From Magnetovibrio sp. (GTDB taxonomy: Bacteria > Pseudomonadota > Alphaproteobacteria > Rhodospirillales > Magnetovibrionaceae): a stretch of 64,000 nucleotides of DNA. This document shows positions 33,196 through 60,969 of this stretch, piece by piece; the stretch's first letter is position 1; the number at the start of each line of letters is the position of its first letter. The stretch is from NCBI GenBank assembly GCA_026196495.1, contig JAPHSY010000024.1, positions 7,604 to 71,603 on the forward strand. Direction: 5' to 3'. Made by a program: the position numbers and the translations under genes. The notes below the pieces were generated by a model. That model was not told the origin of the DNA. It saw only the letters and a list, made by a program, of their open reading frames with translations, and did no database searches.

Positions 33196-33497
33196 CGTGG
33201 TTCAACTGATCGGATTTTGATCCATAAAATCTTTACTTATTTTGTGTAATAATTGATCTGTTGGATTTGGGCTCCGAATTGGACTGGTTGAATGTGTGCC
33301 TAATGCACCCTATCACCCTTCCAGTTTTGGTTGATATTTTGCACGCACAGGATCATTGTTTCATATCTCAAAAAACTTCAGATACTCCGAACAACTGGAA
33401 TTCGCCTGGAATAAGCAGTTTGCTTGGTTGTTTTCGAGCCATAGAAATGTTCAAGTACTGTTTGTTAGAATTTATATAATGATCAAGTGGGTTCCTT

Positions 33498-34967
33498 ATG
33501 GGCAAAGTGCTTTTCATCCAAACACAGAAATATGCTTATCCTGGCCTGTATTATTTATGTGGTGCATTAAAGGAAGCCGGACACGAGTATCAAGTCATTC
33601 ACGCTTTAAAGCTGGAAGAAGCTGCTTCTGTCATTGATGAATTTCAGCCAGATTTAATTGGCTATTCCTGTATGACGGGGGCGCACAAAGCAATTTTAGA
33701 ATTGTCCTCTGAAATCAAAGCGAAATACCCCAATGTACCGATTGTTTTGGGGGGCATTCACCCCACCCTTTACCCCGATGTTTTGAAGCATCCAGCCATC
33801 AGTTTCATTTGCAAAGGTGATGGTGAAGCAGCATTGGTGGAACTGACCGATGCAGTTTGTGCTGGTGAACAAGACTTTCATATCTTCAATATTCATCACA
33901 AAGATGCGGCTGGCGACATTGTTGAAATGCCCATGCGACCGCTGACCAGTGTAATGGATGAATTACCATTCCCTGATTACAGCGTGTATCGCAAAATTTC
34001 TGAGATTGCCGCTGATGAATACCCAATGGTTTATTATGAGCGCGGCTGTCCCTATACCTGCAGTTACTGTCATAACAGTGATCAGCGCGCACTTTACAAA
34101 GGATTGGGTAAATATGTTCGGCGCTTTAGTGTTGATCGTATCATTGCGGAATCCAAGGCCGCACTTGAAAGCTATCCAAAATCAAGAACACTTTTGCTGG
34201 GGGCTGATACGTTTGGGGCTAAAAAGGATTTCACCCGCGAACTTTTGACCCGGTTTAAAGATGAAGTCGGTGTTCCTTACACATGTCTTGTTCGGCCAGA
34301 ATTGGTTACGGAAGAGTTGGCCAAAATGATGGCGGAAACGGGCTGTCACATGGTGGCTTTTGGTGTTGAATCTGGTTCCGAGCGTATCCGCACAAAAATC
34401 TTAGGACGCAAGTACAGCAATGCAAAAGTAGTTGAGGCTGCAAAAATCTTACGGGAATTTGGTGTGAGTTTTCGCACCTATAACATTGTTGGGTTCCCAT
34501 CGGAATCACGGGAAGAAATGTTGGAAACATTGGAATTGAATTTGAAAATTCGACCCGAATTTCCCTGGGCATCAATCTACACCCCCTATCCCCGGACTGA
34601 ATTGGCGGACTACTGCGTTGAACACGGGCACCTTAGCCCAGACTTTTCATTTGATGATGTGCCACTGTCATTTTTCAATGACACCATTTTGGAAAATGTC
34701 GACAGAAGTTTCATCCGAAACATCCATGCCTTCTTCCAATTGTTTGTATTGATGCCGTTTCTTTATCCGGTCTTTAAATGGCTATTGTATGTGCCACACA
34801 ACCCCGTGTTTGGGTTTATCTTTAAGGCCGTTTATTCGTACGTATGTGTCCGATCAGAAAACCGTACAATATGGGGCTTTTTGAAATTGGCTTTTGGCAA
34901 TCGTCACATGTTTTCCCGAAAAGTTAAAAGTAACAGTGGTGTTACGGCCCTAATGGATTCCCAATAA
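33498..34967 (+). CDS. Cobalamin-binding radical SAM protein
   Basis: N-terminal B12-binding domain (PDLIGYS, IVLGGIHPTLYP, KGDGE); RGCPYTCSYC CxxxCxxC; FGVESGSE. Confidence 0.9.
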   Translation: MGKVLFIQTQKYAYPGLYYLCGALKEAGHEYQVIHALKLEEAASVIDEFQPDLIGYSCMTGAHKAILELSSEIKAKYPNVPIVLGGIHPTLYPDVLKHPAISFICKGDGEAALVELTDAVCAGEQDFHIFNIHHKDAAGDIVEMPMRPLTSVMDELPFPDYSVYRKISEIAADEYPMVYYERGCPYTCSYCHNSDQRALYKGLGKYVRRFSVDRIIAESKAALESYPKSRTLLLGADTFGAKKDFTRELLTRFKDEVGVPYTCLVRPELVTEELAKMMAETGCHMVAFGVESGSERIRTKILGRKYSNAKVVEAAKILREFGVSFRTYNIVGFPSESREEMLETLELNLKIRPEFPWASIYTPYPRTELADYCVEHGHLSPDFSFDDVPLSFFNDTILENVDRSFIRNIHAFFQLFVLMPFLYPVFKWLLYVPHNPVFGFIFKAVYSYVCVRSENRTIWGFLKLAFGNRHMFSRKVKSNSGVTALMDSQ

Positions 34968-50330: not shown

Positions 50331-50612
50331 TCAAGTCAGTTTGATCTGGAATTTTTCCAACTTCCTGGCTGATGATATCAATAATTCGCTAAAGTCATCA
50401 GCCGTGTTTTCATACAAACTGAGCATACGCAGTTTGGCCTCTAAGCACATACAGCAGTTTTCTTGACCATTTTCATTTACATATAGGCAGGGTTCACAAA
50501 GATCGCTGGCGGATTGATTGTAAGCCGACCAAATATAGGTAGCATGCAAACAATTATTGTCCTGAATGCAATCTAAGAGCTTATCAAGCACGTCACGATC
50601 ACAAGGATACAT
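50331..50612 (-). CDS. Cys-rich hypothetical protein (93 aa)
   Basis: GGGGAA RBS; 8 Cys including CEPC and CCMC; ends at a bidirectional terminator. Confidence 0.5.
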   Translation of the reverse strand: MYPCDRDVLDKLLDCIQDNNCLHATYIWSAYNQSASDLCEPCLYVNENGQENCCMCLEAKLRMLSLYENTADDFSELLISSARKLEKFQIKLT

Positions 50613-50875: not shown

Positions 50876-52066
50876 TTAGAGAGATTTTTCAGAAATACGT
50901 TTGGATCGTGCGTACCAAAGGGTCGCCACAAAGGTCACAATCAAAAAAGGTGCCATACCGTAATTCACCGCATTCCAACCTGAAAAATTAAACAATCCAC
51001 CTGATGATAAAGATCCGGTTGCGGCTGCGGCAAAGACGATCAACTCATTTACACCTTGGGTTTTGGCCTTTTCTGACGGCTTATATGCTTCTGTCAACAA
51101 CGTGGTGCCGCCAACGAACAAGAAGTTCCACGCAACACCTAACAAAATTAACGCCGCGCCAAAGTTCAATATCTCAATGCCGGAAACGGCAAATAAGGCA
51201 CTTATGATGAACAGTGCCATGCCGCTGAACAAAATTGACAGAACCCCAAACCGATGGATCAGTGTTCCGGTGAAAAATGACGGAATGAACATAGCCAGTA
51301 CATGCCACTGAATGACCGATCCTGTATCGTGCATTTCAAAGCCACACGCAGTCATCGCCAAAGGCGTCGCCGTCATCACCAAAACCATCAAGCCGTAGCT
51401 GGTGGCCGCATTCAAGACAGCCGCAACAAAGGCCGGTTGGCGCATGATTACAGGTAACGGTCGTGCGCCTTCGTGGCTAACATCTTCCATAGGCCGTGGT
51501 ATGCGCACCAATGACAGCGGAATCATCGCCAGTATGCTTGTTGCAGCAGCAACCAAAAAACCACCGGCAAAAGGCACAGGGTCTAGTAAATCGCGGCTGT
51601 AAACCGCCAAACTGGGGCCGATCAGGGCAGAAATGACACCGCCCAATAAGACAAATGAAACTGCACGACTGACGTAGTTCAGGGGGGCACTTTCAATGGC
51701 GGCAAAGCGATAATACTGGCTACAGGCCTGATAAATGCCCATGATCAAGGTAGCAAAACAAAACAGCTCAAAACTGCCTTCGACGATAGCATAAGCCCCC
51801 AAAGCGCCACTAATGCCTCCTGCTGTGGCTCCGATCAAAAAGCCAAAGCGCCGCCCGATGCGTTTCATCAACATAGACATAGGGATGGTGCTGGTTGCGG
51901 TTCCCACAGTCATCACCGCAACCGGCAGGGTCGCCAAGAGCTTGTTATCGGCCAACATCTGCCCAACCAACCCGGCAAACATGATGTAGGTTACGCCCGC
52001 GATGAGATACATCCCCTGCGCAGTGGCCAGCATAAAGATATTTGATCGGTAATGCGTGACTGACAT
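50876..52066 (-). CDS. MFS transporter
   Basis: About 12 TMs; MKRIGRR.GF loop, YYRFAA, QWHVLAMFIPSFFTG, GVAWNFLFVGGT. Confidence 0.9.
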   Translation of the reverse strand: MSVTHYRSNIFMLATAQGMYLIAGVTYIMFAGLVGQMLADNKLLATLPVAVMTVGTATSTIPMSMLMKRIGRRFGFLIGATAGGISGALGAYAIVEGSFELFCFATLIMGIYQACSQYYRFAAIESAPLNYVSRAVSFVLLGGVISALIGPSLAVYSRDLLDPVPFAGGFLVAAATSILAMIPLSLVRIPRPMEDVSHEGARPLPVIMRQPAFVAAVLNAATSYGLMVLVMTATPLAMTACGFEMHDTGSVIQWHVLAMFIPSFFTGTLIHRFGVLSILFSGMALFIISALFAVSGIEILNFGAALILLGVAWNFLFVGGTTLLTEAYKPSEKAKTQGVNELIVFAAAATGSLSSGGLFNFSGWNAVNYGMAPFLIVTFVATLWYARSKRISEKSL

Positions 52067-52070
52067 GTAA

Positions 52071-52994
52071 TCAAGCACCCTTGGATTGTGATATCGGTGT
52101 CTTCGCAGAAGTGGTCAGGATGATACCAACCAATATTGGGGTAATACCTAAGAAATGGTAAGTTTTTAGGCTTTCACCTAAGAAGATAATGGCAAATATG
52201 GATGCAAACAGTGGGATTAAGTGAATAAAAAGACCTGCCTTATTGGCACCAATCCGAGGTACGGCTGCATTCCAACATATAAACGCGGCAATGGATGCAA
52301 ACAGGGCCACATAGGCAATCACCAGCATCGTCGATGTGGTCAATTCAAACCCACCTACCGTATGATATTCCCACAGATAAAATGGCAGCAAAACACAAAC
52401 AGCAATCCAGTTGGTGGTGCCCAACAACACCATGGCTGGAATAGCTTGCCCTTCTCCTTTGGGCAAACGCTTTAACAACACTGAATACACCGACCATGCC
52501 AGCACGGATGCCAACACCCACAAATCACCAGGCGTGAAGCTAAGATTAAGCAACACATCCCATGACCCACGTGAAACGATCACAACCACCCCAAAAACTG
52601 AAATCACAATACCCAATGCCTGACGCAGGCTGAGGCGTTCATCACCAAAAAATACCGACACCACAGGAATGACCATGGGCATGCTTGCCAAGACTACAGC
52701 AGCATTAATGGCTTCCGTCGTGTTCAATGCGATATAGGTAAAACTGTGAAACATTACCATACCCGTAATGGCCAAGATCAACAGCAACCCAAAATGACGT
52801 TTGAGACGTGCACGGTGTTGCCACATCCCTACCGCGACGAATGGCAGTAATATGGTTCCAGATGTGACCCACCGCCAAAATGTCAGGTTTAATGGTGGAA
52901 TATCCATATGCGCCCAACGCCCCACAACAAAGTTCCCGCCCCAAAACAAAGCGGACAACGATAGAAGTAATGCGGGCGACATTTTGGATAACAT
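52071..52994 (-). CDS. DMT/EamA-family transporter
   Basis: ALFWGGNFVVGR, L.FWRW, GDLWVL.SVLAWSVYS, WNAAV..IGANKAGLF..L.P. Confidence 0.92.
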   Translation of the reverse strand: MLSKMSPALLLSLSALFWGGNFVVGRWAHMDIPPLNLTFWRWVTSGTILLPFVAVGMWQHRARLKRHFGLLLILAITGMVMFHSFTYIALNTTEAINAAVVLASMPMVIPVVSVFFGDERLSLRQALGIVISVFGVVVIVSRGSWDVLLNLSFTPGDLWVLASVLAWSVYSVLLKRLPKGEGQAIPAMVLLGTTNWIAVCVLLPFYLWEYHTVGGFELTTSTMLVIAYVALFASIAAFICWNAAVPRIGANKAGLFIHLIPLFASIFAIIFLGESLKTYHFLGITPILVGIILTTSAKTPISQSKGA

Positions 52995-53118
52995 TTAAGT
53001 CATTCTCAACGGGGATGTAGGGGAAGAGTCTGATACTTCCTCTACCCTTGATACTCCATTCCTATTTTGAACTCGACGATGATTTTGTCACCATGACAAT
53101 AAAGGGCCATTCACAAAC

Positions 53119-53172
53119 GTTCTCATTATGTTCTTTTTCTGTTGACAAGAACTATATGTTCGTGTTTTGTTC
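53119..53172 (+). promoter_or_regulatory. Two alphaproteobacterial LexA (SOS) boxes flanking a TTGACA -35
   Basis: GTTC-TCATTAT-GTTC (53119-53133) and GTTC-GTGTTTT-GTTC (53158-53172); TTGACA at 53142-53147. Confidence 0.85.
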
Positions 53173-53217
53173 TCTATAAAGTAAGTTCAACAGAACATTT
53201 GAAACGGAGAACTCGTC

Positions 53218-53313
53218 ATGACCCCCTACCCCCAATTTGAACGTATCCTCGGCGAAATTACGGCAGTTACGGCTTTGTTTGCAGCTGGTTACGTATTGCT
53301 GATGGTAATTTAA
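53218..53313 (+). CDS. 31-aa hydrophobic peptide under LexA boxes (candidate SidA-like), not in the ORF track
   Basis: CGGAGA RBS; MTPYPQFERILGEITAVTALFAAGYVLLMVI; single TM helix. Confidence 0.7.
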   Translation: MTPYPQFERILGEITAVTALFAAGYVLLMVI

Positions 53314-53735
53314 AGGCTATCTGGCAAGATCAATGCGCCATCCTCGTTAGGGACTAATTGCTCCACATAAGAAAATTCCCATGGATGGCCATCGGGATCG
53401 GCAATATAGCCGACATACCCACCCCAAGGCATTTCTATGGGTTGTTTTAGGACTGTAGCCCCTGCCTCTTGGGCTTGCTTCATTAAGGCCTCAACCTCAC
53501 CTCGGCTCTGGGTATTGGTCGCAAGCGTGACCCCACCGGGCTTCCCACCAGATAAGCCTGTGTCATGATCCAAAGTTGCCTGAAGATACAGCCCCAACAC
53601 CTGTTGGCCAGATTGAAAAAATGTAATCTCATCCATGCTTATGGGCGAAGCCACCCATCCCATGGATTCATAATATGCACGCGAAACCTTCATATCCTGA
53701 ACACCTAGCGTGATCAGATGCACTCGGTTGGTCAT
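53310..53735 (-). CDS. VOC (glyoxalase/bleomycin-resistance) family protein
   Basis: VHLITLGV.D...SRAYYE.MGW, VTLA.N, WGGY.GY.ADPDGHPWE. Confidence 0.9.
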   Translation of the reverse strand: MTNRVHLITLGVQDMKVSRAYYESMGWVASPISMDEITFFQSGQQVLGLYLQATLDHDTGLSGGKPGGVTLATNTQSRGEVEALMKQAQEAGATVLKQPIEMPWGGYVGYIADPDGHPWEFSYVEQLVPNEDGALILPDSL

Positions 53736-53782
53736 GGCTAAACTCCTCAGCTCTTGGTCAAAAGCAACAACCTATGTGAAGT

Positions 53783-54451
53783 TTATATGGGGGTATTGAA
53801 GGAAACGGCCACATCTCCTTGGTTCATATGATTGTAAATTGTCTTAGGTGTATGGCCTATTAGATCACGACATTCTCGGATCATATGCGCTTGATCTGAA
53901 AAACCCGCTTCAAACGCTATATCAGTCCAATTTGGGCTTGGTTGAGATACCGCTTTATAAACAGCTCGACGTAATCGCCACATGCGCTGAAGTTCCTTGG
54001 GGCGACAAGACGTTAAACGTTGCGCATATCGACGCAATGTTCGGGTTGGCTGGAATACCTCTCCACACATGAGCGGTGAAACGACAGCGCAGACTTGCCC
54101 TCTTTCCATTAGTTTGCAATTCAATACATCCCAAAAGGATAATGGTTGCTGAAGTCCTTCATCAGGTATGTCCGATGGGGACATTTTTGTATATTTATGA
54201 ACGGCTTCAGGCAGTAACCTGACTCCATCCACACACATATTGGATTCAAGAGAAAAAAGAAAACCTGATTGCGTGGGTGCTAACAATCGGACAGTTGTCT
54301 TTCCGCAAGACAGAGTTTGGCGAATCACATCACAGCAACCATCCGGGAATACCGGGAAAAATAAACCTTGAGCTGTCATGAAGGTTTCCAGTGACCAACA
54401 CCAGCCAACTCCCTCACATGCTTGCTCTGTATATCGCCAAGGCTTATCCAT
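53783..54451 (-). CDS. AraC-family transcriptional regulator
   Basis: VFPDGC.D N-terminus; WTDIAFEAGFSDQAHMIRECR.L.G.TP HTH; upstream of VOC gene. Confidence 0.85.
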   Translation of the reverse strand: MDKPWRYTEQACEGVGWCWSLETFMTAQGLFFPVFPDGCCDVIRQTLSCGKTTVRLLAPTQSGFLFSLESNMCVDGVRLLPEAVHKYTKMSPSDIPDEGLQQPLSFWDVLNCKLMERGQVCAVVSPLMCGEVFQPTRTLRRYAQRLTSCRPKELQRMWRLRRAVYKAVSQPSPNWTDIAFEAGFSDQAHMIRECRDLIGHTPKTIYNHMNQGDVAVSFNTPI

Positions 54452-54466
54452 GATTTGTTCGTATCG

Positions 54467-54901
54467 CTACGCTGATCCCGTCATAGACGGCCCAGCCTCA
54501 TGGACATTTCGTTTTGATCCATCAGCATTCAGGGCAACAAATACAAAATCCCCTTCTGTAACCTTAAGTTCTTCAACTTTCGAACCTGTACGACGATGAA
54601 CCCAAGCCTGTACATGGATCGTGAGCGATGTTTTGCCCTTATTGGTGACATCGGCGTAGCAGCACAGCACATCGCCCGCCAACACAGGCAGGTGAAATTC
54701 CATGGCGGTGATCGCCACCGTTGCGACACGGCCCTGGGCATGATCATTGGCGGTGATCCCCCCTGCCAAATCCATCTGGGCCAAAATCCACCCTCCAAAA
54801 ACATTGCCGCCTGAGTTTAAGTTGGCCGGCATAGCCACTTGGCGGATGGCAAGTTCTCCACGGGGCGTTTCTTGCGGTGCGGAAGAGTTCGATTCGTTCA
54901 T
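54467..54901 (-). CDS. Acyl-CoA thioesterase (YciA-like hotdog fold)
   Basis: AMPANLNSGGNVFGGWILAQMDLAGG, GRVATVA, PVLAGD, VTEG.FVFVA. Confidence 0.92.
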   Translation of the reverse strand: MNESNSSAPQETPRGELAIRQVAMPANLNSGGNVFGGWILAQMDLAGGITANDHAQGRVATVAITAMEFHLPVLAGDVLCCYADVTNKGKTSLTIHVQAWVHRRTGSKVEELKVTEGDFVFVALNADGSKRNVHEAGPSMTGSA

Positions 54902-59313: not shown

Positions 59314-60969
59314 CTAGACTTCTGGGGCGACGGGAAAACGCACCCAGAATGTCGTGCCTTTATCCAACTCGGATTCAACCCCAATTTCACCTTTCATCAA
59401 ATTCACTAAGTCTTGGGTGATAATCAGACCGATGCCGGTTCCTTCAATATTGGTGTTTTCTTGCCCGAGACGTGAAAATGGGGTGAAGAGATTTTCCAGC
59501 CCCTCTTCTGACATGCCTATACCGGTATCCGTAACCGAAATCGTGACATACTCACCATCATGGCTGGCCTGAACGGTTACAGAACCTCCATCGACGTTGT
59601 ATTTAACAGCATTTGTAAGAAGATTGAGCAATACTTGCTTGGTCGATTTTAAGTCAACGAGAATATTGGGGCAATCGTTGTGCAAAGCGGGGGGGGAAAG
59701 TGTAACATTTGCTTTTTCCGCCTGAGATTGAACCAAAGGAAGCGTTTCATAAAACAGCTCCACAACATCTAAGGGTTCAATATCAAGTGTCATATGACCT
59801 GATTCAATCTTGGCCAATTCCAAAATTTCATTAATCAGTGCCAACAAGTGATTTCCACCTGTCTTAATGTGCCCCAGCGATTCCAGTTGGTCAGCATCCA
59901 TCGGTTTTTTGGGATCACTTTCCAGAAATTGTGCAAATCCCAAAATAGCATTGAGTGGGGTTCGCAATTCGTGGCTCATGGATGAAAGGAATTGAGATTT
60001 GGCAAGATTTGCGCTTTCCGCTTGGTGTTTTGCTTTTTCCAAAGCTACCTCTGCGGTTTTGTTGTGCGTAACGTCTTCATAAATCCCTAAAACACCAATT
60101 ACATCCCCCTCCGCATTGCGCAGGGGTGCTTTTGATTTTTTTAACCAAACGTCATTTCCATCACTGTCTTTGAATTTCTCTTCAAATCCCAGCTTAGGTA
60201 TACCGGACTCCATAATCTCAACATCAGAAGCACGATATTCATCGGCTCGATCATGCCAACTCAGTTCGTAATCCGTTTTACCAATAACTTGGTCTGGGTT
60301 ATCTACTCCTGCATCCGTGGCAAACAGTTTATTGCTACCTAAGATGACTGAATCTTTGTCTTTCCAAAAAATCCGCATAGGGATCGTGTCCAAGACCGTT
60401 TGCAGCATAGTATTAAGTTCTGTAAGCCGCATCTCACTGGCAAAAAGATCTCTTTGCGCTTGTAGCGTTTGCTCAGCCTGTTTGTTGAGCTCGCTGGTTC
60501 TTTCAGAAACATTACGTTCAAGCTTTGCCTCAGATTTTTTTAAATCTGTAACATCGTTAAAGACCCACAGGATGCTATTTTCAGAATCGTAGGTTATTTC
60601 ATCACAATTCGCTGTAAAGGTCAGCGTTTCACCAGCAAAAGTCTTAAGTTGTAGTTCGTAATTATGCAGTTTCCCATTGTTACTATGGATCGCATCAATA
60701 CAACGTTTCCTATCTTCAATGCTTGGCCATATACCCAATTCGAGGGCTGTTTTGCCAATAACATTTTCACGTGCAAAGCCTAAGGTCTCCAGGCAGGCCT
60801 CATTTACCGCAAATATTTTACTGTCCACTAACTTCGTAATGGCCATCATCGCGGGACTTGCTTCGAAGATCTTAAAAAAACGATCTTCACTGGCAGCAAG
60901 TTCGGCACTTATTTCTGCGTAAGTATCTGGAGACGGCTCCATGGGGGATTTATCAACCTGTGTTTTCAA
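59314..60969 (-). CDS. Cytoplasmic PAS-PAS sensor histidine kinase
   Basis: Two PAS/PAC domains; [19 protein letters not shown]; NLLTNAVKYN; DTGIGM; GTGIGL. Confidence 0.92.
   Translation of the reverse strand: MKTQVDKSPMEPSPDTYAEISAELAASEDRFFKIFEASPAMMAITKLVDSKIFAVNEACLETLGFARENVIGKTALELGIWPSIEDRKRCIDAIHSNNGKLHNYELQLKTFAGETLTFTANCDEITYDSENSILWVFNDVTDLKKSEAKLERNVSERTSELNKQAEQTLQAQRDLFASEMRLTELNTMLQTVLDTIPMRIFWKDKDSVILGSNKLFATDAGVDNPDQVIGKTDYELSWHDRADEYRASDVEIMESGIPKLGFEEKFKDSDGNDVWLKKSKAPLRNAEGDVIGVLGIYEDVTHNKTAEVALEKAKHQAESANLAKSQFLSSMSHELRTPLNAILGFAQFLESDPKKPMDADQLESLGHIKTGGNHLLALINEILELAKIESGHMTLDIEPLDVVELFYETLPLVQSQAEKANVTLSPPALHNDCPNILVDLKSTKQVLLNLLTNAVKYNVDGGSVTVQASHDGEYVTISVTDTGIGMSEEGLENLFTPFSRLGQENTNIEGTGIGLIITQDLVNLMKGEIGVESELDKGTTFWVRFPVAPEV

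Follow-up and report, generated by a model that had tools for sequence, protein, structure and literature searches.

Small hydrophobic peptides under LexA control are known from E. coli, where TisB/IstR-1 and DinQ/AgrB constitute type I toxin–antitoxin systems. Type I systems typically combine a long structured leader with an RNA antitoxin, and the pore models proposed for TisB rely on charged residues along the helix. A different set of small proteins, represented by AcrZ, KdpF, and MgtS, consists of single helices of about 30–50 aa that are not SOS-regulated. To our knowledge, the division inhibitor SulA does not occur outside Gammaproteobacteria, descriptions of SidA are so far limited to Caulobacter, and for most Alphaproteobacteria we know of no link that leads from DNA damage to division arrest. 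SidA of Caulobacter crescentus is a 29-aa, LexA-repressed division inhibitor of the inner membrane that acts through FtsW (PMC4211646, PMC9578287). LexA of Alphaproteobacteria, Caulobacter included, is established to have the motif GTTC-N7-GTTC (PMC8565304, PMC9578287, PMC12700426), and about 97% of the Caulobacter SOS promoters contain one such box only (PMC12700426).

Here, we describe a 31-codon open reading frame (ORF) behind this motif in a 64-kb stretch of DNA, which is referred to as the window in the following, and its comparison with related loci. A sequence-only reading of the window had claimed two perfect GTTC-N7-GTTC boxes plus a GTTC-N7-GTTG around a TTGACA hexamer, a ribosome site in front of the 31-codon ORF, and an overlap of its stop codon with that of a convergent VOC gene: All of these elements are present in the sequence (Table 1). 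The core of that reading, an unannotated gene for a small membrane peptide behind an alphaproteobacterial LexA-type operator, now finds strong support in comparative evidence. The locus resembles the sidA system in several respects: Both are alphaproteobacterial and situated behind a GTTC-N7-GTTC operator, both encode about 30 residues with one hydrophobic helix (predicted here, the two peptides being compared by their described features), and both genes apparently stand alone on the chromosome without an antitoxin partner. They differ in that members of the new family came to light in no other group than Magnetovibrio-like Rhodospirillales, and in that the window contains two exact boxes.

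Table 1. Positions of the peptide gene, its promoter elements, and the adjoining genes in the window.
Feature	Position	Strand	Remark
Distal exact GTTC-N7-GTTC repeat GTTCTCATTATGTTC	53119–53133	+	Upstream of −35; candidate second LexA operator
Imperfect repeat GTTCTTTTTCTGTTG (GTTC-N7-GTTG, one mismatch)	53130–53144	+	Overlaps distal box and −35
Consensus −35 hexamer TTGACA, peptide gene promoter	53142–53147	+	Read from the sequence
Proximal exact GTTC-N7-GTTC repeat GTTCGTGTTTTGTTC	53158–53172	+	Conserved LexA-type operator
Putative −10 position TTTTGT	53165–53170	+	17 nt after −35; second half of proximal box lies here
Short leader	53173–53217	+	Contains Shine–Dalgarno GGAG (53206–53209), 8 nt before ATG
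CDS of the 31-aa peptide MTPYPQFERILGEITAVTALFAAGYVLLMVI	53218–53313	+	ATG at 53218, stop 53311–53313
Glyoxalase/VOC-family gene (141 aa)	53310–53735	convergent	ORF listing and Pfam
EamA/DMT transporter gene, divergent	52071–52994		
MFS transporter gene, divergent	50876–52078		
AraC-family regulator gene (HTH_18, DUF6597)	53783–54451	−	Between VOC and 4HBT genes

We propose that the segment 53142–53313 constitutes an SOS unit that is complete in itself and contains a single gene. As long as cells are undamaged, LexA would occlude a strong promoter whose −35 hexamer is TTGACA and whose −10 region is covered by a GTTC-N7-GTTC box, with the second exact repeat positioned just upstream of the −35 hexamer. 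DNA damage would then lead to RecA-stimulated self-cleavage of LexA and thereby free the promoter, and the short unstructured leader together with the good ribosome site would permit immediate translation of the 31-residue peptide. Its hydrophobic C-terminal 18 residues would anchor the helix in the inner membrane, the polar E-R…E end most likely facing the cytoplasm, and the peptide would act on a membrane target, most likely causing a transient block of late cell division. Taken as a whole, including the block of late division, we put this explanation at a little below an even chance, and its parts carry different weights: The peptide is most likely an SOS-induced membrane effector, as judged from its gene and operator; LexA binding, induction by damage, membrane insertion, and topology are what we infer from the sequence features detailed below; and the target and the division phenotype are speculative.

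The ORF has homologues that were reached by separate routes. A search with the DMT protein in one genome per species yielded three loci in alphaproteobacterial/Rhodospirillaceae metagenome-assembled genomes, each comprising TTGACA, GTTC-N7-GTTC, GGAG, and a homologous ORF of 27 or 31 codons divergent from the DMT gene. A phmmer search of 1.84 billion representative proteins with the 31-aa peptide returned two matches (E-values 3e-5 and 8e-4) and no homologues beyond these two close relatives; among the contigs of the matches is a 505-kb Magnetovibrio contig (Rhodospirillales, Magnetovibrionaceae) with the gene order of the window. Altogether nine loci were retrieved through the peptide itself, and all those with upstream DNA carry the box. 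Finally, a scan of metagenome contigs for the pattern TTGACA-N8-10-TGTTCNTGNTTTGTTC gave 100 stretches, in about 27 of which a profile built from the first members recognized a family peptide directly after the pattern. The resulting set comprises 30 distinct ORFs encoding 26 distinct peptides of 27 or 31 aa from genomes and metagenomes of Magnetovibrio and related Rhodospirillales; as judged from these homologues, a group of marine alphaproteobacterial relatives of Magnetovibrio has conserved the gene. The peptides fall into three subtypes: a 31-aa form (M-x5-[FIL]-E-R-[IL]-L-[GS]-E…), a 27-aa form (MP[LI][ED]RILNEIAAAT…), and a divergent 27-aa form (MNQ[IL]K[IL]FMDAASLG..F[IV]AGYVWLAVA).

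An ORF of this size might simply remain untranslated, the locus producing a LexA-regulated non-coding RNA or the reading frame having arisen by chance, and it would fit such a view that the gene calls of the contig collection do not include this very sequence, where look-ups of both the window peptide and the VOC protein gave no exact match. The pattern of substitutions nevertheless is that of a protein-coding gene: Across the family ORFs, mean pS is 0.585 and mean pN 0.229, the median dN/dS amounts to 0.22 with saturated synonymous change, and the summed column entropy for codon positions 1, 2, and 3 is 20.6, 15.4, and 37.0, respectively. Seven pairs of loci encode identical peptides and differ at 4–8 synonymous and 0 non-synonymous sites. 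Moreover, reading frame, length, and the position of the stop codon at the C-terminus are fixed in the family, and a Shine–Dalgarno-like tetramer precedes the ATG at conserved spacing in 36 of 37 family loci, with no conserved RNA structure that would speak for a functional transcript instead. On account of the substitution pattern, that is, the median dN/dS and the pairs of identical peptides, we rejected a chance ORF; we consider it almost certain that the 31-codon ORF is a real, translated gene and see hardly any room for an untranslated one. The family members in public data are all metagenomic gene calls that are unnamed or labeled “hypothetical protein”, a description of such a peptide family was not found in the literature, and profile searches of Pfam, NCBIfam (even at a permissive E-value), and PDB with the peptide gave no meaningful match. 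On the basis of their sequence features, we classify the peptides as a previously undescribed family of putatively LexA-controlled small membrane peptides.

With respect to the operator, the motif is not enriched in the window overall: Three exact GTTC-N7-GTTC boxes are seen versus 2.06 expected from shuffled sequences, and the 47 one-mismatch boxes correspond to the chance level (50.8 expected). What stands out is the placement of two exact boxes on the same strand within 54 bp at an intergenic promoter, an arrangement that is unlikely by chance, as we estimate from the shuffle mean that a window would contain about 0.004 such pairs (within 60 bp). The third exact box (59571–59585) falls within a PAS histidine-kinase gene and is most simply put down to chance. 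A B12-binding radical-SAM gene (33498–34967) is preceded, at a distance of 35 nt, by a one-mismatch box (GTTCAAGTACTGTTT, 33449–33463), which is probably not significant because boxes of this kind occur at chance frequency in the window.

The proximal box of the peptide gene is exact in 11 of 11 relatives that were found independently of the box and have upstream DNA, where it lies 24–38 nt before the ATG. Only these 11 loci, which were retrieved via the DMT protein or the peptide and never via the box, serve to assess its conservation because the metagenome members were retrieved by the promoter–operator pattern itself. The family consensus at this position reads aT GTTCATGyTTTGTTC T, and (C)TTGACA is kept 8–9 nt ahead of TGTTC in the independently found relatives, which gives the conserved arrangement TTGACA-N8/9-TGTTC-N7-GTTC. 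Since the second half of the box coincides with the −10 position at a spacing of 17 nt, a repressor bound to the proximal box would occlude the promoter. Neither of the other two repeats is shared in this way: The distal box is absent from 29 of 29 other distinct upstream regions examined and hence confined to the lineage of the window, and the GTTC-N7-GTTG repeat is specific to the window and not conserved in relatives. The distal box may still be a lineage-specific second operator, given that the chance of an exact box within a 100-nt stretch is only about 0.003. In metagenomes, the same promoter–operator pattern also precedes genes of DNA-damage type, the genes in question being LigT-like, radical-SAM, DUF5131, and AlkB-like 2OG-Fe(II) oxygenase genes, as would be expected of the operator of a regulon. 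Overall, we regard control of the peptide gene by LexA and the SOS response as probable, with the proviso that the motif is taken from Alphaproteobacteria in general and may not be that of this clade.

The sequence-only reading had also entertained the possibility of a type I toxin, and this half of it is weakened by the properties of the transcript. Across the family loci, the box ends 24–46 nt before the ATG, which leaves room for a short leader only. The mRNA of the window is less structured than its shuffled counterparts (folding energy −27.3 vs −33.4 kcal/mol; z = +1.73), and RNAalifold detected 0 conserved pairs in 19 family mRNAs. The 40 nt past the stop codon contain no conserved sequence, with an identity of 0.28, which is the random level, versus 0.73 in the ORF; within the ORF, the saturated synonymous sites indicate no extra constraint on the sequence. 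A search for an antisense RNA, which had been suggested along with the toxin, was equally negative: No conserved element follows the stop codon, the downstream neighbors are variable, and an Rfam scan of 52000–54500 gave nothing but an unrelated, sub-threshold AniS match at 54195–54305. The long structured 5′ leader that is a hallmark of type I systems is thus found neither at the window peptide nor in the family, a conserved antisense or divergent antitoxin RNA gene is not present in the family loci, where an unconserved cis-antisense RNA would be possible, and neither Pfam nor NCBIfam places the peptide in a known toxin family.

A membrane-depolarizing peptide of the TisB/DinQ type, which upon strong SOS induction would insert into the inner membrane and, with or without an RNA antitoxin, collapse the proton motive force and drive cells into dormancy or persistence, deserves consideration on other grounds as well. 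The window peptide is comparable in size to TisB and DinQ, is likewise hydrophobic, and has a LexA-type operator upstream; furthermore, the unusual second exact box would fit a product that is costly when expression is leaky, since nearly all Caulobacter SOS promoters have a single box. Against this stand the short unstructured leader without conserved structure, the missing match to Pfam or NCBIfam, and the absence of conserved 3′ sequence, which together with the variable downstream neighbors leaves a conserved antisense gene without a possible site. The LexA motif differs in type from that of TisB and DinQ, the membrane segment carries no charged residues, all charges being N-terminal, and the gene is not patchy or multi-copy but vertically inherited in single copy at a conserved syntenic position. 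We therefore judge a toxin of this kind to be unlikely, albeit worth keeping in mind, and favor a directly translated effector of the SidA kind over a TisB/DinQ module because the leader, RNA, and flanking hallmarks are missing and the gene is syntenic and single-copy.

Two sequence details of the leader region may be added. The ribosome site usually reads GGAGAAC (53206–53212 in the window, and in the family loci) or has GAAC directly ahead of GGAG; either way, a GAAC, which is complementary to the GTTC half-site, is conserved beside the Shine–Dalgarno sequence. In the window, GAACTCGTCATGACC (53209–53223) represents a one-mismatch inverted box that spans the start codon of the peptide.

The boxes are placed in a 223-nt intergenic region that the peptide gene shares with the divergent DMT gene, 125–165 nt upstream of the DMT start codon, and might on this account mainly regulate the DMT–MFS operon, the small ORF being incidental. 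The possibility that they control only the divergent transporter genes, which the sequence-only reading had itself raised, is argued against by loci in which the DMT and peptide genes are split: In Magnetovibrio-type loci, a 179-aa gene is located between the two, with the box still found 37 nt ahead of the peptide ATG; in a further locus (L100), they are separated by an insertion-sequence-like fragment and the box stays with the peptide; and in another (L071), unrelated DNA takes the place of DMT and MFS upstream and the peptide keeps its box. The DMT side, for its part, has an element of its own, a perfect TTGTCA-N3-TGACAA palindrome (TTGTCAccaTGACAA, 53085–53099 in the window) within a longer conserved block (ACACGAYGNYGTTTTTGTCAYGGTGACAA). 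This palindrome is found upstream of DMT–MFS in most relatives, stays on the DMT side when DMT and peptide are split, and shares sequence with a promoter-like site that faces DMT; probably, it serves the transporter operon as operator and −35 region and would respond to some other regulator. No LexA box is present on the DMT side of the split loci. Because the box moves with the peptide and the palindrome stays with DMT, the boxes do not appear to serve DMT–MFS only; the box moreover follows, at 8–9 nt, a TTGACA that is oriented toward the peptide, it lies within a short distance of the peptide ATG, and the peptide ORF is under purifying selection. Regulation chiefly of the transporter operon is hence very improbable, and the comparison across loci shows operator, promoter, and ORF to be a conserved unit that is independent of the divergent transporter genes. 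The 179-aa gene mentioned above (L005–L008 and L010; about 4285–4824 in L005) has a signal-peptide-like N-terminus and no Pfam match, and a cysteine-rich ORF of 93 aa (50331–50612, − strand), which likewise matches nothing in Pfam, follows closely downstream of the MFS gene in the window.

The peptide gene occurs in a single copy per locus and at one syntenic position, MFS–DMT / peptide / (VOC)–4HBT–parE, and this synteny persists down to 75% ParE and 57% DMT identity. The single syntenic copy suggests that the gene is vertically inherited. The linkage to the transporter genes and to parE shows the same degree of conservation as the peptide, and a functional link of the peptide to these neighbors is conceivable. 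The immediate downstream neighbor varies among the loci: In the window, an AraC-type regulator gene, a 4HBT thioesterase gene, and parE are found downstream of the peptide locus, the AraC-family gene having no counterpart in related loci, where VOC and 4HBT adjoin, and by this comparison it is a lineage-specific insertion. A role of the ORF as leader peptide for a downstream gene was ruled out, as the downstream genes are convergent or variable. In many family loci, a convergent VOC or 4HBT gene is located 0–30 nt past the peptide stop. Since no terminator is predicted 3′ of the ORF in the window, SOS-induced read-through past the peptide gene may be antisense to the convergent VOC/4HBT genes.

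With regard to the product, the AlphaFold2 prediction from an alignment of 12 sequences is a single helix that comprises residues 3–30 (mean pLDDT 92.3). Residues 14–31 have a mean Kyte–Doolittle hydropathy of 2.32, this hydrophobic stretch of 18 residues extending to the very last residue, and the only charges, E8, R9, and E13, are all located in the polar N-terminal third, which leaves the membrane segment uncharged. The peptide is accordingly predicted to be tail-anchored in the membrane, most likely with an N-in topology. Four residues are invariant in the family (M1, F21, Y25, and L28) and nine positions nearly so (E8, R9, L11, E/D13, A15, A16, A23, G24, and V26); the four positions of the R-x3-E-x2-A-x4-F spacing, in which the sequence-only reading had seen a resemblance to SidA, are also conserved among the members of the new family. 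All sides of the helix are highly conserved, and no significant helical periodicity was detected (permutation p = 0.92), on which account we dropped the idea of a single conserved interaction face. The conservation of F21, Y25, L28, and other residues favors a specific protein contact over generic damage to the membrane.

Such a contact could be made with a transporter. In this scenario, the peptide would be an SOS-induced accessory subunit or modulator of a membrane protein in the manner of AcrZ, KdpF, and MgtS, which it resembles in length, in its single helix, and in being encoded beside transporter genes, and its partner might be the neighboring EamA/DMT or MFS protein, whose export or uptake activity it would adjust upon DNA damage. 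The all-round conservation of the helix is compatible with burial against a partner, and the gene is divergent to the DMT–MFS operon in nearly all loci, down to the lowest DMT identity given above. This adjacency is little informative, though, as the whole region including 4HBT and parE is syntenic. In addition, the linkage to the transporters is separable: Peptide and box persist in the loci where adjacency to DMT is broken (L005–L008, L100, and L071), the two sides have distinct regulatory elements, namely a separate conserved palindrome and no LexA box on the side of DMT, and AcrZ, KdpF, and MgtS differ from the peptide in lacking SOS regulation. A modulator of this type is, in our estimation, distinctly improbable.

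By analogy with SidA, we tentatively favor inhibition of cell division as the function of the peptide, although we would sooner expect this to be wrong than right. Alternatively, the peptides may represent an independently evolved SOS effector family of Rhodospirillales, serving a division checkpoint or the regulation of a membrane process, that is unrelated to SidA and has a target other than FtsW, which we consider quite unlikely. The target could then be another component of the divisome or elongasome or the neighboring DMT/MFS transporters, and part of the action might be exerted by read-through antisense transcription into the convergent VOC–4HBT genes next to parE.

The preferred reading of a SidA-like block of division makes the peptide a conserved and testable candidate for the missing damage-induced division brake in Magnetovibrio-related Rhodospirillales, and the existence of a cultured relative (Magnetovibrio) makes direct testing feasible. 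The locus also illustrates that comparison between relatives suffices to establish a gene of 27–31 codons which annotations leave unnamed or overlook. A division inhibitor unrelated in sequence to SidA, should the peptide prove to be one, would lend weight to the view that SOS regulons repeatedly recruit very small membrane helices as checkpoint effectors. The locus offers a clean candidate for an SOS division checkpoint rather than a new principle.

The loci collected for this comparison contain two further arrangements around the same motif. A tblastn search of the fetched loci with E. coli LexA as query gave as sole LexA-type match residues 81–161, the peptidase part, in L084, where the match is divergent from the box; it is also present in L107 and L111. 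In these three loci, the promoter–operator pattern adjoins a divergent gene whose product contains an S24 peptidase region of the LexA/UmuD type, with recA at a distance of about 2 kb; a corresponding tblastn search with E. coli RecA as query located no recA gene directly behind the box in the fetched loci. L084, L107, and L111 thereby represent one more candidate SOS locus, which belongs to an unrelated organism of the metagenomes. In four other loci, unrelated proteins of 43 aa (L038 and L080) or 98–107 aa (L051 and L112) are encoded directly behind the same TTGACA plus GTTC-N7-GTTC. A Pfam scan of L051, the one member scanned, gave no match. The products of all four end in a hydrophobic tail (…LTVRLG.M.VV..GALATILKLT) and, in other Alphaproteobacteria, may form a second family of tail-anchored membrane proteins under the control of a LexA box.
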